A stretch of DNA of 64,000 bases from Elusimicrobia bacterium GWA2_61_42 (GCA_001799615.1 MGTU01000009.1:576-64575); one strand, 5' to 3'. Numbered from the stretch's first letter, positions 11,625-52,037 are shown. Translations and numbers: made by a program. Notes: generated by a model not told the origin, from the letters alone.

Positions 11625-11672
11625 AGTATCCTCGTTTCCCGGACCCTGTCCGGCGGCCGTTCGGCCTTGTTT

Positions 11673-14986: not shown

Positions 14987-16351
14987 GTGTTTTATTGTAA
15001 AATTTCAGACATGACGCGGCCCAACGCTTTTACCAAGGTTGCCGGCCCGGCGGCCATTGTCGGCGCCGTCGGCTGGACGCTTTGGCTATGGCCGGCGCAT
15101 TTCCTCTGGGTCTACCCCGCCAGCGGGGCGCTGTTCCTCTGGTTCTCCTGGTCCGGCGAGCGCGAAATAAAATACATCTTCCTTTTCCTGGTCACCGTGG
15201 CCGGGTTCCTGCTGCCTAATCTCTCGCCGGAGGGGGATTCGCTGTACCTTATGGCCGGGGCCATCGCCGAAACCCTGGGCCTGTGGCTGCTTTTCTACGC
15301 CTTGTCCCATTTTGAAACCTCGCGCGTAGCCGCCCGCGAGCGCCTGTACGCGCAGGAGGCGGCGGCGCTGGAAAAAGTGAAGAACCTGGAAGACGAGCTG
15401 GCCCGCTACCGCCTGCACCTCGACAGCACCCTGGCCCGCATAAGGGACAAGGGCGCCCTGGCCGCCGCCCTCCACGACATGGGCTCCGCCTCGGCCCCCG
15501 ACGAGGTGCGCGACCGGCTTGAAACCCTGCTGCGCGAATATTTCCCGGGCGCCTCGGTGGAACTGCGCACCGGCGCCCCGCGCGATTTCGCCGATAACTG
15601 GGTGGCGGAGCGCAAGATCCCGCTGCTGGTGCGCAACTCGGACGCCGACAGCCGCTTTAACCGGAGTCTTTTCGGGCCGCAGGAGCGCTCTTTCATGGCG
15701 CTGCCGCTTTACCTGTTCGGCCGGCTGGTCGGGTTCGTGCGCGCGTCGGCGGCGGCTCCGGACCGCTTCAAGTCGGAGGACCTCCGCGGGGCTGAGCTCG
15801 CCTGCACGCTGGCCGGGGTCAGCATGGAGAACATCTACCTTTTCGACAAGGTCAACGAACTGGCCATAAAGGACGGGCTTACCGGCCTTTACACGCACCG
15901 GGCTTTCCAGGACCGGGTGCAGGAAGAGGTGCTGCGCTCGGCGCGCACCAAGGTCCCGTTCTCCATAATCATGGCCGACATCGACCATTTTAAATCCTAC
16001 AACGACAATTTCGGCCACCAGGCCGGCGACACGGTCCTGAAGGCCGTGGCGGAAGTTTTCGCCGGAGGCGTGCGCGACATCGACTTCGTGTCGCGCTACG
16101 GCGGCGAGGAGTTCGCCCTGGTAATAACCGGCTCCGGCAAAGAGCAGGCGTCCGCCGTGGCCGAGGGGCTGCGCCGCTCGCTCGAGGCCAGGGCTTTTAA
16201 TTTCGGCGGCCGGCCGTCCCGCGTAACCGCCAGCTTCGGCGTGGCCGAATTTCCCTCCGAGGGCGCCGCCGCCAGCCAGCTGGTGCGGGCCTCGGACGAG
16301 CGCCTGTATAAAGCCAAAGAAGGCGGCCGCAACAGGGTGGTGTTCGAATGA
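14987..16351 (+). CDS. Diguanylate cyclase, membrane N-terminus + GAF-like + GGDEF (GGEEF) with an RxxD I-site
   Basis: Contains LTGLYTHRAF, DIDHFKSYND and RDIDFVSRYGGEEF. The ORF-track start is a GTG; the ATG at 15011 (MTRPNAF) is an equally plausible start. Confidence 0.85.
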   Translation: MFYCKISDMTRPNAFTKVAGPAAIVGAVGWTLWLWPAHFLWVYPASGALFLWFSWSGEREIKYIFLFLVTVAGFLLPNLSPEGDSLYLMAGAIAETLGLWLLFYALSHFETSRVAARERLYAQEAAALEKVKNLEDELARYRLHLDSTLARIRDKGALAAALHDMGSASAPDEVRDRLETLLREYFPGASVELRTGAPRDFADNWVAERKIPLLVRNSDADSRFNRSLFGPQERSFMALPLYLFGRLVGFVRASAAAPDRFKSEDLRGAELACTLAGVSMENIYLFDKVNELAIKDGLTGLYTHRAFQDRVQEEVLRSARTKVPFSIIMADIDHFKSYNDNFGHQAGDTVLKAVAEVFAGGVRDIDFVSRYGGEEFALVITGSGKEQASAVAEGLRRSLEARAFNFGGRPSRVTASFGVAEFPSEGAAASQLVRASDERLYKAKEGGRNRVVFE

Positions 16352-17595
16352 ACAGGCCTGAATTGTGGATAGCCGCCGCGGCCGCCGCCCCGGTGCTTTC
16401 CTATTTCCTGGGGCGCCTCAACCGCTGGGCCGGCCTGGCCGCCGGGCTGCTGCTTTTTATTTTCTGCTCTTTCATGCTGGCGGGAGAAATTTCCGCCGGG
16501 GCGCCGTTCGCGGCGCTGGCTTTATGGGTGGCGGCCGCGCTGGCCCACTCGGTGCTGCTCAACGGGCGCCATTCGGACGCGGCGGACAGGTCCGGCCTGG
16601 AGGCCGCCGTAAAAAAGGCGGCCGCGCTGGAAGCCGAGCTTGCCGCCATCAAGAGCGAAGCCAGCCTTAACGCGGCCGGCGAGAAAAAATCCCTGGCCAT
16701 TTATTCCGCCGTAAAATTGCTTTCCGAGACCGTGGAGCCGCAGACCGCCGCCAAACAGCTGGGCAAGTACCTGGCCGACTATTTCGGGACCGAGGAAGCC
16801 GCGCTCTACATGGCCGGCGGTTCAGGCGGCGTGGCGGAGATGGAGCTGTTCGCGCAGGCCGCCAAAGGCTCCGCCCTGCCCGCACTGGCGGAACTGACGG
16901 CCCTGGCCGGAGGCTTCCCTCAGGAGACTGCAGCGGCCGCCGGCCTGGTGCTGGCGCCCGTGGCCGCCGGCGGGGCGCCCCTGGGCCTGATCGTCGTGCG
17001 CGCGGACCCGGCCGCCGCCGATAGCGCGTCCAGGTTCGCGTCCGATATCTCGTTCGCGCTCAAGCGCGTGATCCTGTTCCGCCAGGTGGAATGGCTGTCG
17101 CTTACCGACGGCCTTACCGGCCTGTGGCGCCGCGGCGCCCTGGACGAAAAGATCCGCGAGGAGATCCGGCGCGCCTCGGCGTTCAAGACCACGCTGGGCT
17201 TCATGATAGCCGACATAGACCACTTTAAGCGCCTCAACGACACCTACGGCCACCAGTTCGGCGACGCCGTGCTCAAGCGGGTGGCGCAGCTGCTGAAGTC
17301 AGGGGTTTACGAAACGGACTTCGTCGGGCGTTACGGCGGCGAAGAATTCGGCATAGTGCTGCCCCGCGCCGATTCGGCCGGCCTGCTGCGCAAGGCCGAG
17401 GCCGTGAGGGCCCGCATAGAGGCCGAGGTGTTTTCACAGGGCCTTGAAAAGGTGCGGCTTACCGTTTCCATAGGCATAGCGCACTTTCCCAAGGACGGGC
17501 GCGGCCCCGAGGAACTGGTGGCCGCGGCCGACAAGGCGCTGTACGCCGCCAAGGAAAGCGGGCGAAACCGCGTGGCGGAAGCCGGCAAGAGCTAG
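16348..17595 (+). CDS. Diguanylate cyclase (GGDEF domain, GGEEF), membrane N-terminus; no RxxD I-site
   Basis: Contains LTGLWRRGAL, DIDHFKRLND and YETDFVGRYGGEEF. Its start overlaps the upstream stop (ATGA). Confidence 0.85.
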   Translation: MNRPELWIAAAAAAPVLSYFLGRLNRWAGLAAGLLLFIFCSFMLAGEISAGAPFAALALWVAAALAHSVLLNGRHSDAADRSGLEAAVKKAAALEAELAAIKSEASLNAAGEKKSLAIYSAVKLLSETVEPQTAAKQLGKYLADYFGTEEAALYMAGGSGGVAEMELFAQAAKGSALPALAELTALAGGFPQETAAAAGLVLAPVAAGGAPLGLIVVRADPAAADSASRFASDISFALKRVILFRQVEWLSLTDGLTGLWRRGALDEKIREEIRRASAFKTTLGFMIADIDHFKRLNDTYGHQFGDAVLKRVAQLLKSGVYETDFVGRYGGEEFGIVLPRADSAGLLRKAEAVRARIEAEVFSQGLEKVRLTVSIGIAHFPKDGRGPEELVAAADKALYAAKESGRNRVAEAGKS

Positions 17596-31545: not shown

Positions 31546-31739
31546 GAAACCTCCGCGCCGTGCAGTTTTATTCTTACCGGGACCGGAAAAAGCCGGCTTT
31601 CAGCCGGACAGAGCCCTTAAACATACAAATTAAAAAAAATCGACTTGCCAAGTCAACTCGTTTTCGGCTTCTCACTGAATTGTAATAGTATCAGTTTAGG
31701 GGTCGGCGTGCGGAAAACGCTCCCTTCGCCTGCGCGCTT

Positions 31740-31768
31740 CTGACCTTTTGGCCTTGATATTGTATAAT
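31740..31768 (+). promoter_or_regulatory. Candidate promoter of the giant-protein operon
   Basis: CTGACC, then 17 nt, then TATAAT (31763..31768, preceded by TG). A GAGGTG SD lies at about 31798, ahead of the ATG at 31809. Confidence 0.35.
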
Positions 31769-31808
31769 AGGTCATCTTATTAAGGCAGAATTCCCAACGA
31801 GGTGCTAA

Positions 31809-34800
31809 ATGCGCAATTTTCTGGCAATCTCCGTCTCTTTCCTTTTTTTATTGTTGCCTTTCCCCCAGGACGTTTCAGCCCAGACAGACAGCCCGGATCC
31901 TTTCTCCAAATTTAAAAACCGCGTAAAAGCCGACCGGCAAATGACCGGGGGCGCCGACCAGTGGAAAGCGCTGAGCGCGAAACTGGCGGCGGACCCGCTC
32001 TTCGCGGCGCTGGGCCTGGACAAGCTCGTCTACGACAAAGGCAACCAGCTGACCTACGACTTCGACCTGTCCCTCGGCGGCGAAGAGCTGGACCTGAAAG
32101 GCACGCTGACCTTCGACCCGCAGGCGGCCGACGGCGCCCCGGCGGCCAGCCTGACCTCCAAGGCCGAATCCCGCACCTCCGACGACCTGGTGGACATCGG
32201 CGCGCTGCACGCCACCTCGGCCAGCCTGGACGTAGTGGTCTACAAGGAAGCCGGCGCCTACAAGGTCTACGCCCGCGTCATCCCCTACTTCACCAACTAT
32301 AACAAGCCCCCGCTGCCGGGCCTCATGCTCACCAAAACCAAAGCCGGCCTGGATTTCCTGGTCATAGGCGGCAACCTGGCGTTGCGGGACATCCTGCCTT
32401 ACGCCGGGCAGCTGCCGCTCTACAAGCAGTTCGCCTTCGAAAGCCTGGCCAAGAACGGCACGGAGCTCAAGATCAAGGGCTTTGTGAACGGCCGCGAGAT
32501 CTCCGTGACCGCCGATACCGCCCAGAATACCCTGCGCCTCACCGGCCAGGGCCTGGTGCTGGCTGATTTCTACCCCGAAGCCTCCGCCTTCACCTATCTC
32601 TCCAACTTCGCCTTCGAAAGCTACTACCAGTCCCCCGCGGCCGGCATGGCCGTCGGCGGCACGGTGAACGGCAGGAAGGTCACCGTGGCCCGCGGTGGAG
32701 ACAAGACTTCTTTCGTGGTGACAGCCGCCGGCCTTAAACTGGCCGACTTCGTGCCCGCGGCGGCGCAGGTGCCCGTGCTCGCCAACTTCTCCTTCACCGG
32801 CCTTATCTGGGCGCCCGGTTCCCTTACCGTCAACGGCACCATCGGCGGCAAGAGCGCCGCGGTGGTCTCCGACAGCGCGGGGCAGACCCTCACCGTAACC
32901 GGCGACGCCCTTAAGCTGCAGGACTTCCTCCCCGAAGCCGCCGCTCTGCCCGTACTCGCCGCTTTCGACTTCCTGCGCCTGGAGCAGGCCCCGGCCGGTT
33001 TCTCCGTGCTGGGCCACATCAACGGCGGAGAAGTTACCGTTACAAAGGGCGCGGCGCCCAAAACCTACACCGTAACCTCTACCGGCCTTAAGCTGGCCGA
33101 CTTCATCCCTACAGCGTCCAAAGTGCGGTTCCTCGACGCTTTCGAATTCGTCAGCGCCGGCCGCTCGCCGACGGCTACCCAGGTGACCGGGCGCGTCAGC
33201 GGCAAGAACGTTACCGTCGAAAGCGGCCCGGCGGGGGCTTTCACCCTCACCGGCGAAGGGCTTACGCTCAGCGACCTCGTCCCCGAAGCGTCCAGCCTGG
33301 CCTCGCTCAATAATTTCGTGTTCGAAAAATATGATTACGCCGCCGGCAACACCACGGTGTCCGGCAAGGTGCGGGGCAAAGCCCTGCTGGTGAAGAAAAG
33401 CGCCGGCGACAAGGCGCTGCTCATCAGCGGCGAAGACCTGAAGCTCGCCGACTTCGTAGCCGAAGCTTCGCAGCTTACCTACCTCGATACTTTCGCCCTG
33501 GACACGGTCAAGTGTTCTCCCGACGAATTCATCGTCAACGGCAAGGTGAACGCCAAAGCCGTGACCATAGACGACCACACTACCAGCAATATCTTCACGG
33601 TTACCGGCGAAGCGCTGAAGCTGGCCGATTTTATACCGGACGCGAAGAACCTGACCTACCTCAACACCTTCGCCTTCGACAGCCTTACCCATACGGCCGA
33701 CGGCATCGCCGTGGCGGGCCGCGTGAACGGCAAAGGCGTAACGGTCAGCCATACCCTGGCGGACAAGACCTTCACGGTGAAGGGCGACAATCTCAAGCTG
33801 GCGGATTTCATCCCGGCGGCGGTCAAGATCTCTTACCTGAACGGCTTCACCTTCCTGGAGCTGGATTACTCCGAGACCGAAATTAAAGTAGCCGGCACGG
33901 TGAACGCCAAGAACATCGCGGTGGTGCAGGACCTGGCCACCAAGATGTTCACGCTGACCGGTTCCGCGCTGCAGCTGACGGACTTTGTGCCGGCGGCCAG
34001 GAATCTCCCCTACCTGCAGAAGTTCGACCTGAACCGCGTGCAGCAGCGCCCCAACGGCGCGCTGGTGAACGGCGACATAGACGGCAAAGCGCTGAGCGTG
34101 GACGCCGACCTGGACGCCAATACCTTCAAGATCACGGGCGCCGACCTGCTCCTTAAGGACTTCGTCCCGCAGGTTTCCGGGTGGTCTTACCTGAATAACT
34201 TCAAGTTCGACAGCCTGCTCTCGACGCTTACCGACGTCACCGTGACCGGCAAGGTGGGCGACAAGGCGGTCTACGTCAAGAAGACGCTGAATTCCCCGAA
34301 TTTCATGGTGACCGGCGACGACCTGACGCTGGTGGACTTCATCCCCGAGGCGGCCGAGGTGCCCTGCGTGAGCGCCTTCGCGCTGGACAGCGTGCAGCGC
34401 TCGGACACCGACGCTTCCATCGCCGGCAAAGTCGACGGCAAGCCCGTCGGTATAACCACTACTTTCGCCGACAACTCGATCAAGATGACCGGGCTGGGCC
34501 TGAGCCTGCCCGCGTGCGTGCCGTTCTCTCTGAACCTGCCCGCCCTGAAGTGGTTCACCTTCGGCAGCCTGTTCCATTGGCCGGACAGGATCGAAGTGAA
34601 CGGGACCATCGACGGCAAGGCGGTGAAACTTGTGTGGGTCTTCTCCCCCAAGGTCATAACCGCCACCGGCGACAGCCTTAAGCTGGCCGACTTCATCCCG
34701 GAGACCGCCAGGATCCCGCTCTTAAACTCGTTCGCTTTCCTGAGCATGGAGTATACGGATACTACGTTGACCGTGAGCGGCACGGTGAGAAGCAAGAACG

Positions 34801-37800
34801 TGGCCGCCGTGCGTGACAACGCTGCCAAGAGCATTAAAGTGACCGGCGACGACCTGAAGCTGGCGGACTTCGTGCCCGAGGCGGCTGACGTCCCCTTCCT
34901 GAAAGCTTTCGCTTTCGACAGCCTGGCCTATACCCCGGACTCCATCGTGGTGGAGGGCAAGCTGAGCGCCAAGAAGGTTTCCGTGACGCGGGCTTTCGGC
35001 CCGGCGACCGCTTTCACCGCCACCGGCGAGGGACTTACGCTCAAGGACATCGTCCCCGAGGCGGGCGGCATTAAGGCTTTCGACGCGCTGGCTCTTAATC
35101 TGGTCAGCGTGAGCCCGGAGGCCGTGCAGGTAGCCGGCACGCTGAACGGCAAAGCGGTGAAGTTCGTGCGCACCCGGAACGACAAACCCGTGACCACCGT
35201 TACGGCGGACGGCATGGTGCTGGCGGATATTTACGCCCCGCTGGCCGGCCTGCCCGCCGTGAACGCGGTGGCCGTGGACAAGATCAGCCTGGACGGCACC
35301 AGCGTGGAAGCCGAGGCTAAACTGAACGGCGTGAAGGTGGACGTTATCGCCCACGCCAACCAGAATAACGACGGCGGCTACGTCTCCGTCTTCTTCGACA
35401 CGCTCTCGGCCGCCACCTTCATCCCGGCGGCGCAGGGACATTTGGTCAACGACCTCTTCCTGGAGAAGGCGCTGTTCCTCGTGCAGCCCGCGGGCTCGCC
35501 CGCGCGTGCGGTTACGGCCGCGGACCTGCCCGGCGACCTGCCCAAACTGGTAGCGTGGCCGGCTAACACGTCGATGAACCTGTCGGAAGGCGTGAATTTC
35601 GCCGCCACCATCGCCACGGCCAAGTCCGGCAAGCTCGCCGACGCTTTCAAGACCGTCGGCCTGCCGCCGGTCAGCGTGTTCGTCAAAGGCACGGTTTCCC
35701 AGAATACCTTTAAAGGCATGACCCCGGGCGGAGCGCTGGCCGAAGCCGACAAGCAGGTTATGCTGGCCGGCCTGGACCTGAGCATAGATCTCCCGCTGCC
35801 TACCCTCCCCGCCATCGCGGGCATGGTCACCGTCAAAGGACCGGTCACACTTAACATCGGCGGCGACGCCAGGAACAAGAGCAGCCTGTGGGCGCGCGTG
35901 CCCGCGGCCATAGCCGCTTCCAAGCCTAAGGGCGACCTGGACGTGTCCGTGCAGTTCCAAGTGGACATAGTCGGCGCGGGCATCGGCGAGAAGTTGGACG
36001 CCCTGGTGAGCCTGGACAAAGGCGCGAGCGGCGGTTTAACCCTGCTGGCGCTTTACGAGGGCGCCTGGAAGCAGCCTTTCGGCATCCAGGGCCTGACCCT
36101 GGCCGACGGCGGCTTCGAGTTCGCGCTGGACGGCAAGGACGCGCAGGCCAAGAGCAGCCTGGGCTTCTTCGCCACGGCGCTGATAGGCGGCAAGAACGTG
36201 GCCGTCACCGCCGAACTGAAGCGCGCGGACGGCAAGATCTCGCTGGATTACTTCGAGCTGGACGGCAAGTTCCGCCTGGCCGATTTCCCCGGCGGCAAGA
36301 ACATTCCCTCCGGCGAGAAGTTCGAGCTGGACCAGCTGAAACTTTCGGTCAACGGCATAGAGGCCAAGACCGTGATAGGCGGGAACAAGGTGAACGCCTA
36401 CATGTTCAACGCCGGCGCGGCCGCGACGCCCAACTGGGTCTTCGCCATCAACCAGAAGAACTTCAAGATCACCGAGCTGCTGCCCGCTGCCAAGGCTATC
36501 AAGCCGCTGGCCGCCATGACCATCCCCAACGCGGCGCTGATCCTTTCCGAGAAAGGGCTGAAGAACGCCGACCGCAACAGCCTGGGCGTGATCGCCAGGG
36601 ACATGTTCGACGGCATCCTCGGTAAATCCAACGCGCCGGTCACCCTGCCCGACGGCATAGGCCTGCTGGCGGAGTTCGACCCCAACGCGATGGGCATTGT
36701 GGGTAAAGGGCTTAACGCCATAGGCGTGCATGACGACGCCATTATAATGGGCGCCGTCACCGGAGTATTCCAGGGCCAGGCCGGCGTAATGCTGTCGCTG
36801 AGCATGGAGAGCGCGGGCGCGGCCAAGGGCCTGCCCGGCAAGATCATGACCTTCAAGCCCGGAGTGCCGCCGGCTTACTTCATCCAGTGGGCGGGCGCGG
36901 ACCTGTACGCGGGCCTGAGCACCGCGATGCAGGTGAAAGCCGGCAAGGAGACCATCGACTTCGCCACCAAACTGGAGCTGCAGTTCGGCGAGGCCGGCGC
37001 CGGGGTAAAGATCCTGGGCGAGAAGACCGGGCCCTGGAAGCAGCCTTTCGGCATCAAGGGCCTGACCCTCAATAACCTGAAGATGGACGTGGCCATAACG
37101 CCCGTGGGCGAGGTGCAGTTCGGCCTGGCCGGCGCCGGGGTAAAGATCCTGGGCGAGAAGACCGGGCCCTGGAAGCAGCCTTTCGGCATCAAGGGCCTGA
37201 CCCTCAATAACCTGAAGATGGACGTGGCCATAACGCCCGTGGGCGAGGTGCAGTTCGGCCTGGCCGGCGATCAGCTGTACGGCAACTGCCACGACCTGAA
37301 GTCCAAGGACTGCGTGGACGTGGACCTGGCGATGAGCGTGAAAGTCCCGCTGGAGGCCGGCCTGCCCGACGGCGTGGCCTTCGCCGGCAAGGTGAATCCG
37401 CTGAGCATCCCGGCCCTGATGGAGATAACGGAAACGCTGATGGGCGTGCCCGCGGGCAGCATCGCCAAGCTGCCGGTGCCTTACTTCGAGATCGACAACG
37501 CCCAGCTGGCCTTCGCCACGCCAGGCGCCAGCGACCCGCAGCTGGGGCTGGTAAGCGAGGGCTTCGCCTTCGCCGGCAACTTCTTCTTCATGAACAAGAA
37601 TCTGGGGAAGGTAACGGGCGCCGGCGGGCCCGGCGGCCTCAGGATCAAGGGCGCTATCGGCGACATCGACCTGGAAGTTCTGAAGTTCACGGATAATACC
37701 ATCGACATTTCCGTCAACCAGGTCCCCAAATACGTCATCAACGCCAACGTGACCCTGCTGGGCGCGCCCCAGAAGGTGGCCATCGACATCGAGCCGCCGC

Positions 37801-39824
37801 ATTTCTCCTTCGACATAACGGAAAAGCTGGGCGCCTTCGGCAACGCGCTGCTGACCATCACCATGGACGGCTTCGACCTGAAGAAAGGCACCTTCGACAA
37901 GAACGCCGGGATCAGCGTGGTGGGCGAGTTCCAGTCCACGCTGGTGCCGTGGATGAAGGCCGAAGTGAAGCGCGGCGTGGAAGAACTGCGGGATTCCGCC
38001 AAGGCCAAGTTCGAGGCCGACGGTAAAGCTTTGAACGAGGCGATGGACAAGGTCAACCAGCTCACCGCCAAGATCCAGAAACTCAAAGAAGAGGACCAGA
38101 AAGCCAAAGACCGGGCCAACGACGCCCTGGATTCCGCCAAGCGCCGCGTGGATTCTTTGTCCGACCAGCACGACCACGAGAACCACCAGGCCCACCATTG
38201 CGGTTCGCGCTGGACGCATTGGGCCTGTTCGCCCGGCTGGCGCATAGCCGCGGCTTCGACCTGGGTCATTTACGAAGTGGCCGAGAAATCCCTGGACGCC
38301 GCCAAGAAAGTGGTGGCGGCCGCCACCAACCTGGACCCCCGCGTAGCGGCCCTGATCGCCGAGCGCGACATCGAGCGCGCCGGGCTTTCCGTGGCACAGG
38401 CCGTGGTGAAGGTGGCCGAGGACGTGGAAGACTTCGTGATGAAAGAACTCGAGACCGTCCTGGAGAAAGCGATCTCCAGCATGCCGCTGGAAATAGACAA
38501 GACCTATATCGTGGGCGACCTGAAGGACATGGTCACCCACAACGACCCGCTGGTGCTGGATATGCAGTTCAAGCTGGCCGGCGCCCCGATGCACGAGTTC
38601 TTCGCGGTAAAGATCCCGATCAACGAGGAGAACGCCCAGTTCGACGCGGGCTCCTTCGCGCTGCTGCCGGCGCTGGCCATGGACAAGCTGACCGAGGACG
38701 CGCTGAGCAAGCTCTCGCCGTCGGCGGCCAAGTGGGTGCACTCCCACATCGCCACGCAGATCGCCGACTCCGAGGAGAAGGTGCGCGAGGCCGTGGAAGC
38801 CCAGGAGGAGAAGTACAAAGCCGTGCTGGCTTCCCTGGAGAACGGCACCGCGAAGTACAAGAAGGCCTTCGCGGAGCAGGCCGACGACCACCTGAAGCTG
38901 GTGGAGGGCATGGACGTCAGCGACCTGATGCCCAACAGCCTGCAGTACCAGAACACCTACCTCGCCATCGGGCACAGCAGTCTCTGCCTGGCCGTCTCCA
39001 AGGACGGCCTGAGCGTGGTGCAGCTGCCCTGCAAGGACGCGGACGTGCAGCAGTGGAGCACGGTGGCGCTGAAGGACGACGCCGCGGGCTACGTGGAGCT
39101 CAAGAACAAGGGGCTCTGCCTGAAGGCCCGCCAGGGCGACGAACGGGACGGCTTCGAGCCGCTGATCCTGGCCCAGTGCGACTCGGACGACCTGCATGAG
39201 CAGTGGAAGATAATCTCGGCGGACGGGTTCTACGAGGAGATCGTCAACCGCGCTTCGCAGAAATGCCTGCACTTCGACAAAGAGGACGCCAACCCGGAGT
39301 CGGCTTTCGCCAAGTGGACCAGCTGCCTGGGCACCGACTCCCAGACCTTCCGGGACATCTCCGACGCGGAGAAGCCCACCTGGCACAAGGTGGAGTCCAT
39401 GGTGAGGGCGGCCAACGGCCTGTGCCTGGACGTGGTGGAACAGGCGGAGAACGCGCTGCAGATCACGCCGGACAAAAAAGAGATAAAACTCTACGCGCAT
39501 AAATGCGGCGAAGGCAGCGAGAAGTTCAACTACATCGAAGAGGTGGACGGCGACATCCGGCTGGTGCATACCGAGACCGGCGCCTGCGTCTACCCGCAGG
39601 AAAAGAGCACCACCCTGGCGCTCAGGGCCTGCGACCGCGGCGAAGACATGTTCTGGCGGATCAACGCCAAGTCGGCCAACGCCGACCAGTTCTTCATCGA
39701 GCCCAGGAACGCCTGCATGACGCTGCCCGCGCCGCCCAAGGGATCCACGCAGGACCTGGAAGCGGGCATCGCGGACTGCAACATCGTACCCAACGACAGC
39801 ACCTTACTGGAACTTACAAAATGA
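31809..39824 (+). CDS. Giant secreted repeat protein (2,671 aa): signal peptide, about 17 novel ~59-aa repeats, central beta-rich region, coiled coil, C-terminal ricin-type beta-trefoil lectin domains
   Basis: The signal peptide is MRNFLAISVSFLFLLLPFPQDVSA-Q. The repeat consensus is L-K-L-A-D-F-I-P-E-A..L..F.F.S......V.G.VNGK.V.V. The coiled coil is KALNEAMDKVNQLTAKIQKLKEEDQKAKDRANDALDSAKRRV. The C-terminus (about 38950..39821) has CL...QQW / CL...EQW / ...KW and a second CLDV...FW module, as in (QxW)3 lectins. Confidence 0.9.
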   Translation: MRNFLAISVSFLFLLLPFPQDVSAQTDSPDPFSKFKNRVKADRQMTGGADQWKALSAKLAADPLFAALGLDKLVYDKGNQLTYDFDLSLGGEELDLKGTLTFDPQAADGAPAASLTSKAESRTSDDLVDIGALHATSASLDVVVYKEAGAYKVYARVIPYFTNYNKPPLPGLMLTKTKAGLDFLVIGGNLALRDILPYAGQLPLYKQFAFESLAKNGTELKIKGFVNGREISVTADTAQNTLRLTGQGLVLADFYPEASAFTYLSNFAFESYYQSPAAGMAVGGTVNGRKVTVARGGDKTSFVVTAAGLKLADFVPAAAQVPVLANFSFTGLIWAPGSLTVNGTIGGKSAAVVSDSAGQTLTVTGDALKLQDFLPEAAALPVLAAFDFLRLEQAPAGFSVLGHINGGEVTVTKGAAPKTYTVTSTGLKLADFIPTASKVRFLDAFEFVSAGRSPTATQVTGRVSGKNVTVESGPAGAFTLTGEGLTLSDLVPEASSLASLNNFVFEKYDYAAGNTTVSGKVRGKALLVKKSAGDKALLISGEDLKLADFVAEASQLTYLDTFALDTVKCSPDEFIVNGKVNAKAVTIDDHTTSNIFTVTGEALKLADFIPDAKNLTYLNTFAFDSLTHTADGIAVAGRVNGKGVTVSHTLADKTFTVKGDNLKLADFIPAAVKISYLNGFTFLELDYSETEIKVAGTVNAKNIAVVQDLATKMFTLTGSALQLTDFVPAARNLPYLQKFDLNRVQQRPNGALVNGDIDGKALSVDADLDANTFKITGADLLLKDFVPQVSGWSYLNNFKFDSLLSTLTDVTVTGKVGDKAVYVKKTLNSPNFMVTGDDLTLVDFIPEAAEVPCVSAFALDSVQRSDTDASIAGKVDGKPVGITTTFADNSIKMTGLGLSLPACVPFSLNLPALKWFTFGSLFHWPDRIEVNGTIDGKAVKLVWVFSPKVITATGDSLKLADFIPETARIPLLNSFAFLSMEYTDTTLTVSGTVRSKNVAAVRDNAAKSIKVTGDDLKLADFVPEAADVPFLKAFAFDSLAYTPDSIVVEGKLSAKKVSVTRAFGPATAFTATGEGLTLKDIVPEAGGIKAFDALALNLVSVSPEAVQVAGTLNGKAVKFVRTRNDKPVTTVTADGMVLADIYAPLAGLPAVNAVAVDKISLDGTSVEAEAKLNGVKVDVIAHANQNNDGGYVSVFFDTLSAATFIPAAQGHLVNDLFLEKALFLVQPAGSPARAVTAADLPGDLPKLVAWPANTSMNLSEGVNFAATIATAKSGKLADAFKTVGLPPVSVFVKGTVSQNTFKGMTPGGALAEADKQVMLAGLDLSIDLPLPTLPAIAGMVTVKGPVTLNIGGDARNKSSLWARVPAAIAASKPKGDLDVSVQFQVDIVGAGIGEKLDALVSLDKGASGGLTLLALYEGAWKQPFGIQGLTLADGGFEFALDGKDAQAKSSLGFFATALIGGKNVAVTAELKRADGKISLDYFELDGKFRLADFPGGKNIPSGEKFELDQLKLSVNGIEAKTVIGGNKVNAYMFNAGAAATPNWVFAINQKNFKITELLPAAKAIKPLAAMTIPNAALILSEKGLKNADRNSLGVIARDMFDGILGKSNAPVTLPDGIGLLAEFDPNAMGIVGKGLNAIGVHDDAIIMGAVTGVFQGQAGVMLSLSMESAGAAKGLPGKIMTFKPGVPPAYFIQWAGADLYAGLSTAMQVKAGKETIDFATKLELQFGEAGAGVKILGEKTGPWKQPFGIKGLTLNNLKMDVAITPVGEVQFGLAGAGVKILGEKTGPWKQPFGIKGLTLNNLKMDVAITPVGEVQFGLAGDQLYGNCHDLKSKDCVDVDLAMSVKVPLEAGLPDGVAFAGKVNPLSIPALMEITETLMGVPAGSIAKLPVPYFEIDNAQLAFATPGASDPQLGLVSEGFAFAGNFFFMNKNLGKVTGAGGPGGLRIKGAIGDIDLEVLKFTDNTIDISVNQVPKYVINANVTLLGAPQKVAIDIEPPHFSFDITEKLGAFGNALLTITMDGFDLKKGTFDKNAGISVVGEFQSTLVPWMKAEVKRGVEELRDSAKAKFEADGKALNEAMDKVNQLTAKIQKLKEEDQKAKDRANDALDSAKRRVDSLSDQHDHENHQAHHCGSRWTHWACSPGWRIAAASTWVIYEVAEKSLDAAKKVVAAATNLDPRVAALIAERDIERAGLSVAQAVVKVAEDVEDFVMKELETVLEKAISSMPLEIDKTYIVGDLKDMVTHNDPLVLDMQFKLAGAPMHEFFAVKIPINEENAQFDAGSFALLPALAMDKLTEDALSKLSPSAAKWVHSHIATQIADSEEKVREAVEAQEEKYKAVLASLENGTAKYKKAFAEQADDHLKLVEGMDVSDLMPNSLQYQNTYLAIGHSSLCLAVSKDGLSVVQLPCKDADVQQWSTVALKDDAAGYVELKNKGLCLKARQGDERDGFEPLILAQCDSDDLHEQWKIISADGFYEEIVNRASQKCLHFDKEDANPESAFAKWTSCLGTDSQTFRDISDAEKPTWHKVESMVRAANGLCLDVVEQAENALQITPDKKEIKLYAHKCGEGSEKFNYIEEVDGDIRLVHTETGACVYPQEKSTTLALRACDRGEDMFWRINAKSANADQFFIEPRNACMTLPAPPKGSTQDLEAGIADCNIVPNDSTLLELTK
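32376..35360 (+). repeat. Array of about 17 degenerate tandem coding repeats (~177 nt / ~59 aa each) in the giant gene
   Basis: Each unit starts with L[KTQLV]L[AKSTQ]D[FIL][VIY]P and ends ...T[VLA]TG. Seventeen units were counted by eye, from LALRDILPYAG to MVLADIYAPLA. Confidence 0.8.
36993..37262 (+). repeat. Perfect 2 x 135-bp in-frame tandem duplication (45 aa: AGAGVKILGEKTGPWKQPFGIKGLTLNNLKMDVAITPVGEVQFGL)
   Basis: The sequence gccggcgccggggtaaagatcctgggcgag...gaggtgcagttcggcctg occurs twice back to back, with no mismatch that I can see. Confidence 0.85.
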
Positions 39825-41752
39825 AAAAAATAACCACCTCGCTCCTCAGCCTGCTGCTTCTCGCCCCCGCGTTCAGCGGCTGCGCGTCCACGGCTCAAAC
39901 GGCCCGGCGCGTGCCCCTGAACCCCTCGGTAGACCGGATGCTGGACGACGTCGCCCGCAGCCCCTCGAGCAGCAAGATCAGCGCGTCCATCCGGGACGGG
40001 ATCAAGCAGCTCCGCAAGGGCCGCTACGCGGAGGCCGGCAAGAGCTTCGCGGCCGGTCTGAGGGTAGACCCGGTGAGCGGGAATTTGCACTTCCTGAACG
40101 CCCTGGCCTATCACCTCAGCTCGCTGTCGGGCGACCAGGCTATGCTGGACCTGGCCGAGTCGGGCTACGCTACGGCGCTGCGCTTCGACCCGGATAATTA
40201 CTGGGCCTCCTATTTCCTGGGCCACGTCTACTTCACCCAGAAGCGCTACAAGGACGCGCAGAACCAGTTCTCCTACGCGCTGCTCTATGTCCCCGAGGAC
40301 GCGGAATTCCTGAGAGCGCTGGCCACGGCTTCCTATTACGAACAGAGCCTGGACACGGCGAGCTGGGCCGCGGAGAAAGCGGCGGCCCGCGAGCCGCTGA
40401 ACCCTTCGGGCTGGCGCCTGGTAACGCTGACCAGGGCCGCCAAAGGGGACTTTAAAGGGGCAGAAGAGGGGTTCCTGAAGTACCAGGCGCTTACCGGGAT
40501 GAAGGCCGACAAAAAGAATAGCGGCGCGGTCCAGGAATGGACCACCTCCTACCTGAGGAACCGTGTCGACGACTGGAAGGCTTTTCACCGGCAGCACCCC
40601 GCCCTGGTCCAGGCGGCCGGCCCCGGCGTCTTCAAGGCCCCGGTCCAGGCGGAAGGCAAGCCGCTGGACGTGGCCGGCCAGGACGACAACTACGACGACA
40701 GCAACGACGCCTCAATGCAGGGGGTCCCGCCCGGGCCCGCGCCCGCGCCTTTCAGCCCCGCCACCAAGCTGGACGAAGCCGAGCCCAAGATGACCCTGGT
40801 GGACGTGGTGCTGCTCAGCACCGAAGAGAGCCGCACCCAGTCCAAAGGCGTCAACCTGCTGGCCGGCCTGAAGGCCACGCTGACCGGAACTTTGTACGCG
40901 TACAAATATATCAACGCGCGCGGCTCGGGCGGCACGTCGGGCCGTTCCACCACGGTGGCGCCGACCTTCGCCCTGAGCAACATGACGTACAACCTGAACA
41001 TCTGGAACGACGGCGTGAACAAGGCCGAAGTGCTGGCCCGGCCTTCGCTGCTGGCCGTGGAGAACCAGACATCCCAGTTCTACTCGGGCGCCGTGCTGCA
41101 CGTGCAGCTCAACAGCAACAATTCCGACGGGTCGCTGGTGGACGTGCCGGTGGGCATCAACCTGTCGGTCACGCCCACCTTCGTGGACAATGAGACCATC
41201 AAGCTCAAGGTGCATGCCGACCGCAGCTTTATCGAATCCAAGAGCGAGAAGCTGGGCTTCGACACTTTCTCCCAGACTTCCAAGACTTCCGTGGACGCCA
41301 CGGCCATCATGAAGTTCGGCGAGACGCTGATCCTGAGCGGCCTGTCCGAGAACGAGACGACCAAGTCCAAGAGCGGCGTGCCGTTCCTGCAGAGCATCCC
41401 CATCATCCAGTCGCTCTTCTCCAACAAGACCGAGCACGAGATGAAGAAGTCGGTGATGATCCTGATCTGCCCGCAGAAAGCCCACCGCGCCGCCGAGCAT
41501 ATGACGCCCGCCGAGGCGAAAGAGATGCGTAAGGCGCTGCTCAAGGGGCCGGCGGCGGTGGCGCACCTGAAGGCGCTGAAGGCCAAGGAAGGCCTGGACA
41601 CCAAGGACAACCTGGACGCGGTTTACGAGGAGATCTACAAGGGCAAATATTACAAGGAATTCCAGAGCGGCGACCTGCGCCTGGACGAATGGCATAACTC
41701 CGACAGCATGATCGGCTCGATCAAGCGCGTGCTCGGTTTCCTCTGGTATTAA
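39821..41752 (+). CDS. Outer-membrane lipoprotein with N-terminal TPR region and C-terminal secretin domain (liposecretin)
   Basis: ATG 39821 overlaps the giant-gene stop (ATGA). The lipobox is MKKITTSLLSLLLLAPAFSGC. TPR-like helices span about aa 60-230. The secretin core is GINLSVTPTFVDNETIKLKVHAD...GETLILSGLSENETTKSKSGVPFLQSIPIIQSLFSNKTEHEMKKSVMILICPQ. The ORF-track N-terminal extension (from 39503) lies inside the giant gene and was rejected. Confidence 0.8.
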   Translation: MKKITTSLLSLLLLAPAFSGCASTAQTARRVPLNPSVDRMLDDVARSPSSSKISASIRDGIKQLRKGRYAEAGKSFAAGLRVDPVSGNLHFLNALAYHLSSLSGDQAMLDLAESGYATALRFDPDNYWASYFLGHVYFTQKRYKDAQNQFSYALLYVPEDAEFLRALATASYYEQSLDTASWAAEKAAAREPLNPSGWRLVTLTRAAKGDFKGAEEGFLKYQALTGMKADKKNSGAVQEWTTSYLRNRVDDWKAFHRQHPALVQAAGPGVFKAPVQAEGKPLDVAGQDDNYDDSNDASMQGVPPGPAPAPFSPATKLDEAEPKMTLVDVVLLSTEESRTQSKGVNLLAGLKATLTGTLYAYKYINARGSGGTSGRSTTVAPTFALSNMTYNLNIWNDGVNKAEVLARPSLLAVENQTSQFYSGAVLHVQLNSNNSDGSLVDVPVGINLSVTPTFVDNETIKLKVHADRSFIESKSEKLGFDTFSQTSKTSVDATAIMKFGETLILSGLSENETTKSKSGVPFLQSIPIIQSLFSNKTEHEMKKSVMILICPQKAHRAAEHMTPAEAKEMRKALLKGPAAVAHLKALKAKEGLDTKDNLDAVYEEIYKGKYYKEFQSGDLRLDEWHNSDSMIGSIKRVLGFLWY

Positions 41753-41753
41753 G

Positions 41754-42554
41754 ATGAAAGACCACGCTCTCCTTCTACTGCTGGCGGCGGGGCTCGCCCT
41801 GCCCGCGCGGGCCGTAGCGGCCGACGCGCCGACCTTGCAGGAGGCTTTTGTGCGGGCGGCTGCCGGGGTGAAGCCCGCGGTGGCGGCGATCACCGCCGGC
41901 CGCGGGGCGGACGCCGGTTCCCCGCTGGAACGCGAGCCCGAAGAGATGGTGGAACAGTACTTTTTCCCGACGGCGCCGCACCGGGCCGGCAGGCCCGAAC
42001 TGCATACCGGGCGGCAAGTGCCCAACACCGGCTCGGGCGTGGTGGTGGATCCGGCCGGCTATCTCCTGACCAGCGCGCACGTGGTGAGCGGGGCGGAGGT
42101 CATCACCGTGACCTTCGCGGGCGAGACGGGGAAAAGCTACAGCGGCAGCGTGATAAGCGAGGACGCCGCCGCCGACCTGGCCCTGGTCAAGATCGAGGGG
42201 AAGAAGGGGCTGGTGGCAGCGAAGCTCGGCGACTCCAACGGGCTGCGCGCCGGGGAATGGGCCATAGCGGTGGGCAGCCCGGCCGGGTTGGCCCAATCCG
42301 TAAGCGTGGGCGTGATCTCGGCCCCCGGCCAGAAGCTCCCGGTAAGCAAGGACACCTGGCTGGAGGTGATCCAGACGGACGCGGCCATCAACCCGGGCAA
42401 TTCCGGCGGCCCGCTGCTGAATCTCCGCGGCGAGGTCATAGGGATAAATACGGCCAGCTATTCCCCGGCCGGGGAATTCGCCGGCATAGGCTTCGCCATC
42501 CCCATAAACCGCGCCAAGGGACTGCTTTCAGTCCTCCGCAAGGCCTCTCGCTGA
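41754..42554 (+). CDS. Secreted trypsin-like serine protease (S1C/HtrA-like catalytic domain, no PDZ)
   Basis: The signal peptide is MKDHALLLLLAAGLALPARAVA. The catalytic triad context is LLTSAHVV, DLALVKI and NPGNSGGPLLN. It starts 1 nt after the secretin stop. Confidence 0.85.
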   Translation: MKDHALLLLLAAGLALPARAVAADAPTLQEAFVRAAAGVKPAVAAITAGRGADAGSPLEREPEEMVEQYFFPTAPHRAGRPELHTGRQVPNTGSGVVVDPAGYLLTSAHVVSGAEVITVTFAGETGKSYSGSVISEDAAADLALVKIEGKKGLVAAKLGDSNGLRAGEWAIAVGSPAGLAQSVSVGVISAPGQKLPVSKDTWLEVIQTDAAINPGNSGGPLLNLRGEVIGINTASYSPAGEFAGIGFAIPINRAKGLLSVLRKASR

Positions 42555-42578
42555 CCGCGCGCTTTTGCGGTTTATTAA

Positions 42579-42614
42579 GGCCCGGCAGGCTGAAACCTGC
42601 CGGGCCTTTTCTTT
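42579..42614 (+). terminator. Intrinsic terminator of the giant-protein/secretin/protease operon
   Basis: The stem ggcccggcagg-ctgaaa-cctgccgggcc is followed by TTTTCTTT. Confidence 0.8.
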
Positions 42615-45395: not shown

Positions 45396-45467
45396 GCGCC
45401 CGTGGTGAAATGGATATCACAGGAGCCTCCGAAGCTTCTAGTGCAGGTTCGATTCCTGCCGGGCGCA
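45396..45467 (+). tRNA. tRNA-Arg (anticodon CCG)
   Basis: Hand-folded cloverleaf: acceptor GCGCCCG/CGGGCGC, D-stem GTGA/TCAC, anticodon stem GGAGC/GCTTC with loop CT-CCG-AA, T-arm GCAGG-TTCGATT-CCTGC, discriminator A. No encoded CCA. Confidence 0.85.
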
Positions 45468-50878: not shown

Positions 50879-51066
50879 TTGACACCGCCAGGGATTATCT
50901 TATATGTTTAACCGAGGGAACGGGAGAATGCTTTTTTTTGCGCCCGCCCTGCCGGCCTTAACCGGCCATTTTTTTTCGAGAGTCCCCGCGGACCCCCCTG
51001 ACACATCCGCGGGGACTCTCCAATTTGCCGCGGTACCGGTAATAGGCCTTAGGGCCTATTTTTTTC
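50879..51066 (+). promoter_or_regulatory. Candidate promoter plus structured leader or small RNA upstream of the GH104 gene
   Basis: TTGACA (50879), then 16 nt, then TATATG. Next is a perfect 14-bp hairpin gagagtccccgcgg/ccgcggggactctc (50979..51021), then the terminator-like hairpin ataggcc-ttag-ggcctat + TTTTTT (51043..51066). This lies 45 nt before the ATG. Confidence 0.4.
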
Positions 51067-51110
51067 AGGGCCCAAGGGCACTTAAAGGCCGCGCCGCCGC
51101 CTGCCATAAT

Positions 51111-52037
51111 ATGGGAATGGAAAGGATGAACCGGGCCGCTTTAATTACCCTGCTTGCGATAGCGGCGCCCGTCTGCGCTTCGGCGCAGGCCTTTGACGAA
51201 CTGCTGGCGGCTTACGCCGGCGATAAAAATTTATCCCTGCCTTCCGTCCCCGCCGCCCCTGCCCTGGCGGAAGCAGAGCAGTACCTGCCCCCCGACAATA
51301 AAGAACCCGGTTTTGAATGGCCCTCGGAAAGGAAGGACAGGGCCGCCGAGGATTTTTTCTATATAGGCAATAACACCGCTTTCCTCAAGGCTTCCACCGA
51401 CCTTGCGGCCGATCTGGCCGAAGGCAGCGGCCGGTGCGCCCTCGCCCCTAATGCCCTTTATAAAACCCAGGCCAAACCCGGCTTCCAGGGCGAGCATATG
51501 ACCGTGACCCTGGCCGCGCCGCTGCCCGGCTGCGCCATCACCCGCGGCTATCTCTACATGACCGACGTTTCCTCCAGCTCGGCCGGCGGGGCCTGGGAGC
51601 TGCCCAGGACGGTGAGGGCCTTCATGGATACCCTGGCTTTCGCCGAGGGCACCAAGGCCCGTTATAATTATATTTTCACCTTCGTCACCTTCAACAGCTA
51701 CGCGGACCATCCCCGCAAAGCCATCTGCGCCGGCAAACTGTGCTCTACGGCCGCCGGGCGCTACCAGTTCCTTTCTAAAACCTGGGACGGCCTGGCCCCC
51801 GGCCTGGGCCTTACGGAGTTCACCCCGCCCAGCCAGGAAAAAGCGGCGCTTGAGATCATCCGCCGCGCCGGCGCCTACAACAGGGTGCTCAAATCCAACG
51901 TCTATGAGAATTTCACTTCCGCCCTCGCCAAACTGAACACCACCTGGGCCTCGCTGCCCGGCAGCCCTTACGGTCAGCCCACCCACCCTACCTCGGAACT
52001 GTGGAAAGTCTATAAAGCCGCCCTCGCCAAATATTGA
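51111..52037 (+). CDS. Secreted GH104-like (phage lambda R-type) lytic transglycosylase/muramidase with unknown N-terminal domain
   Basis: The signal peptide MNRAALITLLAIAAPVCASAQA follows the ATG cluster at 51111/51117/51126. The C-terminus is FAEGT...YADHP...STAAGRYQFLSKTWD. The ORF-track N-terminal 69 aa are treated as leader. Confidence 0.7.
   Translation: MGMERMNRAALITLLAIAAPVCASAQAFDELLAAYAGDKNLSLPSVPAAPALAEAEQYLPPDNKEPGFEWPSERKDRAAEDFFYIGNNTAFLKASTDLAADLAEGSGRCALAPNALYKTQAKPGFQGEHMTVTLAAPLPGCAITRGYLYMTDVSSSSAGGAWELPRTVRAFMDTLAFAEGTKARYNYIFTFVTFNSYADHPRKAICAGKLCSTAAGRYQFLSKTWDGLAPGLGLTEFTPPSQEKAALEIIRRAGAYNRVLKSNVYENFTSALAKLNTTWASLPGSPYGQPTHPTSELWKVYKAALAKY

Follow-up and report, generated by a model that had tools for sequence, protein, structure and literature searches.

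A lipoprotein secretin with a tetratricopeptide repeat region in place of N domains is linked to giant lectin proteins across several phyla

Can a secretin serve a single dedicated cargo with no secretion machine behind it? All secretins known so far are outer-membrane components of large machines driven by ATP, namely the type II and type III secretion systems (T2SS and T3SS), type IV pili (T4P), the Tad system, and filamentous phage. We examined this question at a locus of Elusimicrobia bacterium GWA2_61_42, a metagenome-assembled genome (MAG) of the Elusimicrobiota. The window, by which we mean the whole stretch of DNA that was analysed, is 64 kb long (64,000 nucleotides, GCA_001799615.1 MGTU01000009.1:576-64575), and the locus lies at ~31.7-42.6 kb on its + strand. 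Here three closely packed genes form one unit that encodes a giant lectin protein, a secretin with a tetratricopeptide repeat (TPR) domain, and a predicted protease. This secretin has a new architecture, in which a lipobox and a TPR region precede the secretin domain and N domains are absent. Its linkage to a family of giant, Sec-exported, lectin-tipped proteins is strict, and no secretion-machine genes are linked to the pair in the window or in the neighbourhoods of its relatives. We give about an even chance to what we consider the best reading of these results, which is that two genes of the locus encode an autonomous module for export across the outer membrane, joined by one accessory gene that is lineage-specific; the module would be similar to two-partner secretion but with a secretin.

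The unit has the following layout.

31740..31768, + strand: promoter-like site CTGACC-17-TATAAT, upstream of the giant gene
5 nt upstream of the giant ATG, + strand: Shine-Dalgarno sequence GAGGT
31809..39824, + strand: giant gene, 2,671 aa, TGA at 39822-39824
39821..39824, + strand: ATGA overlap of the giant stop and the secretin start, secretin ATG at 39821-39823
39821..41752, + strand: secretin gene, 643 aa, TAA at 41750-41752
41754..42554, + strand: protease gene, 266 aa, ATG one base past the secretin TAA
42577..42614, + strand: intrinsic terminator that closes the unit, 13-bp stem (10 GC pairs) with a T tail at 42577-42608

A first-pass annotation of this DNA had described a three-gene + strand unit with an ATGA overlap at 39821..39824, a protease gene beginning 1 nt past the secretin stop, and a strong terminator at its end. 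The coordinates agree with that description, and the terminator has a 13-bp stem and a T tail. The same annotation had described a 2,671-aa repeat and lectin protein with a Sec signal and a secretin with a lipobox (AFSGC), a TPR region, and a C-terminal core motif (GVPFLQSIPIIQSLF). We recovered all of these, with the signal peptide, 17 repeats, and two ricin lectins in the giant, and the Pfam families that it expected (Secretin, TPR, Ricin_B_lectin, and Trypsin_2) all matched. The ATGA overlap is predicted to couple translation of the giant and secretin genes. A mechanical list of open reading frames (ORFs) put the start of the secretin at 39503 and not at 39821. However, the secretin aligns with homologues of 613-666 aa from Met1 onward, a protein of 643 aa is given by public gene calls, and both Met1 and Cys21 are conserved. 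Thus, ATG 39821 is the real start of the secretin.

The secretin is composed of five parts, for which the predicted local distance difference test (pLDDT) score is given where it helps to define them.

39821..39883, + strand: lipoprotein signal peptide, aa 1-21, lipobox AFSG-C
39923..40615, + strand: all-helical TPR domain, aa 35-265, pLDDT ~90
40616..40777, + strand: disordered Pro/Asp-rich linker, aa 266-319, pLDDT ~30, with no N0-N3 domain here
40778..41485, + strand: secretin beta-domain, aa ~320-555, with the motif GVPFLQSIPIIQSLF
41486..41752, + strand: conserved helical C-terminal tail, aa 556-643 (~88 aa), ending in GFLWY, plus the stop codon

The C-terminal beta-domain places this protein in the secretin superfamily PF00263. 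Pfam matched the Secretin domain over aa 400-552 with 104.4 bits against a cut-off of 27.5, as well as TPR_19. The profile of the secretin family matched secretins in the PDB, and the protein contains the GVPxLxxIP motif. Using Foldseek, we found that the beta-domain resembles GspD, InvG, RcpA, PilQ, pIV, and BfpB (E = 9e-16 to 7e-10). It is 13-20% identical to the T2SS, T3SS, Tad, T4P, pIV, and BfpB secretins and about equally close to each class. Its scores are 3- to 12-fold below the cut-off of every curated family, including GspD (TIGR02517, 83.6 bits against 351), PilQ (TIGR02515, 69.6 against 284), SctC (TIGR02516, 73.4 against 238), and MshL. Public databases annotate such proteins as 'hypothetical', 'type II and III secretion system protein', or 'ricin-type lectin domain protein'.

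What sets this protein apart lies upstream of the beta-domain. Pfam detected no Secretin_N (PF03958) domain in the window secretin or in ~105 full-length homologues, and no AMIN, STN, or PF13629/BON-type domain in the secretin. The AlphaFold2 (AF2) model of the monomer consists of helices, a disordered linker, and the beta-domain, with no N0-N3. The farther secretin hits all carry N-terminal domains of the secretin type (PF03958 in P0107-P0109, P0111, and P0112; PF13629 in P0110), and the match to RcpA in the PDB covers the beta-domain alone. Thus, GspD/PulD/XcpQ of the T2SS, InvG/SctC of the T3SS, PilQ of T4P, RcpA of Tad, and pIV of phage share the C-terminal beta-domain with this secretin, which differs from them in having a TPR domain and disordered linker in place of N0-N3/AMIN/STN, a tail of ~88 aa that ends in GFLWY, and no linked machine genes.

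At the N-terminus, Cys21 is present in at least 90% of 27 members of the secretin family, and the protein has the lipobox of HxcQ-type liposecretins, from which acylation is predicted. HxcQ from Pseudomonas aeruginosa, BfpB, TcpC, and PilN also have an N-terminal lipobox. Those proteins keep their N domains and are encoded within complete T2SS or type IVb pilus clusters, whereas neither is true of this secretin. The lipid anchor of HxcQ reportedly takes it to the outer membrane with no separate pilotin (Viarre et al. 2009, cited in PMC12475490). Given its lipobox, the secretin described here is probably also carried to the outer membrane by Lol and would need no pilotin of its own.

The TPR domain is generic in sequence. 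Designed consensus TPRs were its best matches and PilF scored just E = 0.17, leading us to reject a specific homology to pilotins. TIGR02521 (PilW) aligned over aa 13-229 at E = 1e-7, which is under its cut-off. Matches to MamA, MamE, and MamO in NCBIfam and Foldseek searches were well under cut-off and reflect generic similarity to TPR and HtrA proteins; the window contains no magnetosome genes. The pilotins PilF/PilW/Tgl, which act on PilQ, and TadD, which acts on RcpA (PDB 8odn), are like this domain in being a lipidated, all-TPR module of ~230 aa that is associated with a secretin. They are separate proteins, whereas the module here is fused in cis. Because of this resemblance in architecture, the TPR region may serve secretin assembly, as a fused pilotin, instead of or besides docking of a cargo.

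We then examined how the secretin and the giant are distributed, using one genome per GTDB species. Relatives of the TPR-secretin occur in 274 species. We retrieved 80 loci that included as much as 10 kb of flanking sequence per side, numbered here with the prefix L, and placed giants and secretins by ORF calling and tblastn. In 41 of the 80 loci, a giant homologue was located no more than 4.6 kb from the secretin. It is upstream on the same strand in 34 of these, abutting or overlapping the secretin gene in 28, and on the opposite strand in the other 7. A giant was present in every one of the 27 loci that could be evaluated among the 28 whose secretins are most similar (27/27). These closest loci belong to Elusimicrobiota, Campylobacterota (Sulfurospirillum arcachonense DSM 9755), Bdellovibrionota (Halobacteriovorax), Gammaproteobacteria, Rhodospirillales (including Roseospirillum parvum 930I), and Desulfovibrionaceae; Kiloniella spongiae and Halarcobacter ebronensis are further cultured carriers. 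The genes flanking the pair differ between phyla and are unrelated to each other. Pairwise identities among secretins correlate strongly with those among giants (Spearman 0.88, Pearson 0.96, 276 pairs), and the pair therefore behaves as one heritable unit.

Some of these loci depart from the simple two-gene arrangement. At L027 and L029 the ORF caller merged giant and secretin into frames of 3,284 and 1,206 aa, which represent either a true gene fusion or merely the lack of an in-frame stop upstream of the secretin start. In some Rhodospirillales, a small protein (167-187 aa) that matches no Pfam family is encoded between the giant and the secretin or just after the secretin (L043:9440-9961, L047:9239-9799, also L034 and L041), and this protein may be an accessory factor.

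A six-frame motif scan for machine genes covered 1.52 Mb in 87 sequences (86 loci and the window). No prepilin leader was found in these secretin neighbourhoods. A PilB/GspE-type Walker A motif (GPTGSGKTT) occurred in one of the 87 sequences, near 15.5 kb of L013 and ~3.6 kb downstream of the secretin. The gene that contains it, in one Elusimicrobia MAG, is probably an unrelated T4P gene. We found no gspC-M, gspE, or pseudopilin genes among the window ORFs scanned and no conserved occurrence of them across the 86 loci. The context of the window itself was determined with Pfam scans of 30 other called ORFs (a few short ORFs excepted) and with the motif scan of the whole window. These revealed no GspE/PilB ATPase, platform protein, pilin or pseudopilin, or prepilin peptidase, and no T2SS, T4P, Tad, or T3SS genes among the ORFs scanned.

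These results bear on the possibility that the secretin is a displaced or shared outer-membrane part of a T2SS, T4P, or Tad system encoded elsewhere, with the giant as its substrate or a mere neighbour. It is well established that every characterised secretin works with an inner-membrane machine, and L013 has a PilB-like ATPase ~3.6 kb downstream; both points favour this possibility. By contrast, the N0-N3 contacts for partners of the GspC, PilP, or PrgH type are missing from this secretin, its scores are far under all equivalog cut-offs, and it stays beside the giant and co-diverges with it across phyla while the flanks change. Because there is no N0-N3, because secretin and giant co-diverge, and because a single PilB-like signature and no prepilin turned up in the 1.52 Mb, we consider a displaced secretin quite unlikely.

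The partner of the secretin is an unusually large protein with the following features.

31809..31880, + strand: Sec signal peptide, aa 1-24, MRNFLAISVSFLFLLLPFPQDVSA followed by Q
31881..32342, + strand: N-terminal region, aa 25-178, poorly conserved outside Elusimicrobia
32343..35345, + strand: 17 tandem repeats of 59 aa, aa 179-1179
35346..37940, + strand: conserved beta-rich core, aa 1180-2044
36975..37269, + strand: 135-bp near-exact tandem duplication (98% matches, 2.2 copies), which adds 45 aa, AGVKILGEKTGPWKQPFGIKGLTLNNLKMDVAITPVGEVQFGL
37941..38963, + strand: long helical hairpin (~84, 28, and 47 residues) followed by a small mixed domain
38190-38240, + strand: Cys loop HHCGSRWTHWACSPGW between the first two helices, aa 2128-2144
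38964..39821, + strand: two ricin-type beta-trefoil lectin domains, aa 2386-2671

The signal peptide is the sole hydrophobic segment of the giant, which has no further membrane segment. The 59-aa repeats matched no Pfam family, and their copy number ranges from ~2 to 27 among relatives. Conservation is concentrated overall at ~aa 1100-2385. This core is internally duplicated, with aa 1129-1288 similar to aa 1482-1643 (hhalign probability 98%). An AF2 model of aa 1100-2299 (mean pLDDT 74) has long antiparallel beta-meanders followed by helices of ~84, 28, and 47 residues, and neither the PDB nor a set of predicted viral structures contained a significant match to it. The loop after the ~84-residue helix is modelled with low confidence; its motif HHCGSxWTHWACSPGW is nearly invariant and its two Cys are invariant, making it a candidate disulphide-stapled binding or metal site. 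The two stretches at the C-terminus each matched the ricin lectin families in Pfam (PF00652, 50.6 bits; PF14200, RicinB_lectin_2, 47.1 bits), and the designed trefoil ThreeFoil (E = 1e-4) was the sole match when the whole protein was searched against the PDB. The C-terminus thus belongs to the ricin-type beta-trefoil lectins, and sugar binding is predicted. A conserved ending, L-[ED]-[FL]-[VT]-K, was considered as a C-terminal secretion signal and rejected, since it is explained most simply as the final strand of the trefoil. The 135-bp duplication is missing from sister assemblies of this species, which encode 2,626 aa; it reflects either a polymorphism that arose recently in this strain or an artefact of assembly. 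A word-indexed homologue search returned only 10 and 15 proteins related to the giant, whereas an exhaustive phmmer search returned 250 clusters at 50% identity that are related to the core. These clusters carry no annotation or genomic context.

Such a protein could also be a structural partner of the secretin. According to this alternative, the giant stays inside the secretin or bound to it and serves as a permanent surface fibre or an envelope-spanning device with its lectin tips outward, possibly for attachment to prey or a substrate or for contact-dependent delivery. Translational coupling implies comparable synthesis of the giant and the secretin, and their divergence is tightly matched. 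The long repeat stalk, the helical hairpin of ~85 residues with its conserved Cys loop, and the terminal lectins would suit such a device, as would the established precedent of LapA, which is retained in an outer-membrane pore and freed by a periplasmic protease. On the other hand, no retention module or anchor is recognisable in the giant, and its repeat number varies widely, from ~2 to 27. We regard a lodged giant as unlikely, while giving it appreciable weight; it differs from export by the two-gene module solely in where the giant finally resides.

LapA is also a useful comparison for the third gene of the unit. In the LapA/LapE/LapG system, the genes for a giant adhesin with repeats, a pore in the outer membrane, and a periplasmic protease likewise lie together. 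However, LapA is exported by a type I secretion system with an ABC transporter and a TolC-like pore, and LapG is a cysteine protease controlled by LapD and cyclic di-GMP, whereas the protease here is of the HtrA serine type and occurs in Elusimicrobiales only. This protease combines a signal peptide with a trypsin fold of the HtrA type (Trypsin_2, 111 bits in Pfam), with a triad of His109, Asp141, and Ser217 in the motifs TSAHVV, DLALVK, and GNSGGP. It matched positions 2-229 of the 434 positions of TIGR02037 with 236 bits against a cut-off of 416, and Pfam found no PDZ domain in its 266 aa. It is thus predicted to be a periplasmic HtrA-type serine protease. The gene is located downstream of the secretin in only 12 loci, all from Elusimicrobiales, and is absent from L018 and L023 of Elusimicrobia, from L019, and from all other phyla. 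Thus, the protease is a lineage-specific accessory of part of the Elusimicrobiales and stands outside the conserved module.

The first-pass annotation had proposed a module of cargo, secretin, and protease. The pairing of giant and secretin is indeed conserved, and the synteny that it had looked for in relatives holds across phyla for these two genes (41 of 80 loci, and all 27 evaluable loci among the closest). The protease (12 loci, Elusimicrobiales only) is not part of this core. Its remark that the 64 kb contain no secretion-machine genes agrees with the ORF and motif scans of the window. Of the three results that it named as refuting its idea, none was seen as far as each could be examined: the secretin profile matches strongly, the giant and secretin genes are syntenic in relatives, and a displaced secretin is unlikely. 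Overall, the evidence supports its interpretation in part.

The more distant branches of the secretin family, with 30-35% identity, are found mostly in Burkholderiales and Rhodocyclales and in some Alphaproteobacteria, and their neighbours differ. In eight loci the distant secretin adjoins a large protein with a signal peptide and Tectonin domains. Other large neighbours with signal peptides include a DM9 and RHS-like protein, a protein with a Vps62 domain, and a shorter ricin protein. Neighbours of these kinds were seen at L065, L068-L071, L081, L082, and L085, and at L071:15323-20413, L052:11687-15805, and L063:1620-4784. One giant from Ferrovibrio bears both ricin and Tectonin domains and therefore ties the two sets of neighbours together. 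These observations suggest that the lectin-bearing cargoes are exchangeable, which fits a translocator with swappable cargo.

Other proteins were also seen near distant TPR-secretins. A pentapeptide-repeat protein of ~289 aa lies beside or near them in 10 loci (L028, L056, L057, L059, L060, L062, L067, L072, L073, and L074) and is directly downstream in 7. This protein may be a recurrent secretin accessory. A pentapeptide-repeat protein has been reported to co-purify with the PilQ nozzles of cyanobacteria (PMC12475490). At L060 and L074, two TPR-secretin paralogues are located in tandem.

The remainder of the window gives the genomic setting of the unit. Downstream of the terminator are alaS and then a tRNA-Arg(CCG) gene (45396-45467). 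Upstream, two divergent genes that encode a 261-aa MetA-like outer-membrane protein and a 96-aa ORF were considered as members of the unit and rejected, being conserved in assemblies of the same species only. The GC content of the region is even throughout, and the same locus is present in Elusimicrobia MAGs from the Rifle aquifer and other sources. Using Pfam, we identified elsewhere in the window a cluster resembling polyunsaturated fatty acid (PUFA) synthases of the polyketide synthase type, diguanylate cyclases, two-component systems, phosphate transport genes, helicases, and TldD/PmbA. The cluster consists of three large genes on the - strand at 1-13250 with PUFA-synthase-like domain sets, which are KS-AT-ACPx3-KR-DH, KS-KS-AT-FabA, and an enoyl-reductase/FabD-like protein. 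In this Elusimicrobiota genome, the three genes resemble a pfa-type polyunsaturated fatty acid cluster or a polyketide cluster. Two adjacent genes for GGDEF diguanylate cyclases are located at 14987-17595, and a 377-aa ORF at 50904-52037 has no Pfam match.

We compared the pair with other systems in which a periplasmic substrate crosses the outer membrane. Type Vb secretion (FhaB/FhaC and ShlA/ShlB) is similar in that a very large Sec-dependent exoprotein is encoded beside a dedicated outer-membrane transporter, there is no ATPase, and the cargoes vary. It differs in using an Omp85 barrel with POTRA domains and a cargo with a two-partner secretion (TPS) domain and a beta-helix, and Pfam detected none of these in the secretin or the giant. 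BcsC, PgaA, AlgK/AlgE, PelB, and Slam of type XI secretion combine a periplasmic TPR domain with an outer-membrane channel for a polymer or protein from the periplasm and have no dedicated outer-membrane ATPase. They are monomeric beta-barrels, not multimeric secretins, and all but Slam have polysaccharide substrates. In the full-text literature that we searched, neither TPR-secretins nor the pairing of a secretin with a giant lectin protein was described. Among unconventional uses of secretins, the closest that we found is the reported action of PilQ and GspD as slime nozzles (PMC12475490).

A further alternative is that the TPR-secretin exports a polysaccharide or other polymer, in the manner of synthase-dependent systems or a 'slime nozzle', and that the giant lectin binds this polymer in the matrix. 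A TPR domain with an outer-membrane channel is the hallmark of BcsC, PgaA, AlgK/AlgE, and PelB, slime secretion has been connected with the secretins PilQ and GspD (PMC12475490), the partner proteins bear lectin domains, and there is a polysaccharide deacetylase gene 6.5 kb downstream of the unit. However, the conserved surroundings of the pair include no glycosyltransferase, synthase, or Wzx/Wzy gene, the deacetylase gene is separated from the unit by alaS and the tRNA gene and is not conserved in other phyla, and the lectin protein would still need an export route of its own. Export of a polymer by this secretin is, in our judgement, very improbable.

Returning to the two-gene export module, we can outline how it might operate. 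Because the giant, the secretin, and the protease all have N-terminal export signals, all three would enter the periplasm through Sec. The lipid anchor, perhaps aided by the fused TPR domain, would target the secretin to the outer membrane, and there it would assemble into a gated multimeric channel of the usual kind. Since it has no N0-N3 domains, the secretin presumably could not dock on the inner-membrane platform of a T2SS, T4P, Tad, or T3SS machine. A ring of TPR domains beneath the channel would receive the giant, as do the TPR domains in BcsC, PgaA, AlgK, and Slam. The giant would then pass through lengthwise, with folding of the 59-aa repeats and the beta-rich core on the outside providing direction with no ATPase. 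It would end as a surface fibre or as a released adhesin or toxin whose ricin lectins bind target glycans. In Elusimicrobiales, the PDZ-less HtrA protease could clear stalled copies of the giant or could trim or release it, comparable to the action of LapG on LapA. Export of the giant through the secretin, opening of the gate, the driving force, and release as opposed to retention are all steps that we infer. More generally, we put at somewhat below even the chance that several phyla possess an ATPase-independent pathway in which an N-domain-less secretin translocates one dedicated, very large Sec-exported cargo, with lectin cargoes that vary by secretin branch, making it the secretin counterpart of two-partner secretion.

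Several points weigh against an autonomous export module. Departure of the giant from the cell, or its passage through the secretin channel, is deduced from sequence, and the proposed energy source is speculative. To our knowledge, every known secretin opens only with a filament or needle pushing from below. The TPR domain is generic in sequence, so that any role given to it is tentative. In roughly half of the loci that we retrieved, namely where the secretins are most distant, no giant homologue is detectable. Confidence in the AF2 models is moderate (pLDDT 74 and 68). In addition, a T2SS or T4P elsewhere in the genome surely exists in many carriers.

The giants define a family of ~250 clusters at 50% identity with a core of ~900 aa that has no recognisable fold. 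For the secretins, the exchange of the coupling domains for a TPR domain, together with co-travel with the gene for one giant cargo, suggests that secretins can work alone. This raises the questions of how a secretin gate opens with no piston and how a 280-kDa protein crosses the outer membrane with no local energy source. Members of the family occur in cultured bacteria, and the idea is therefore testable. If the pair does work autonomously, it would count as a new secretion pathway.

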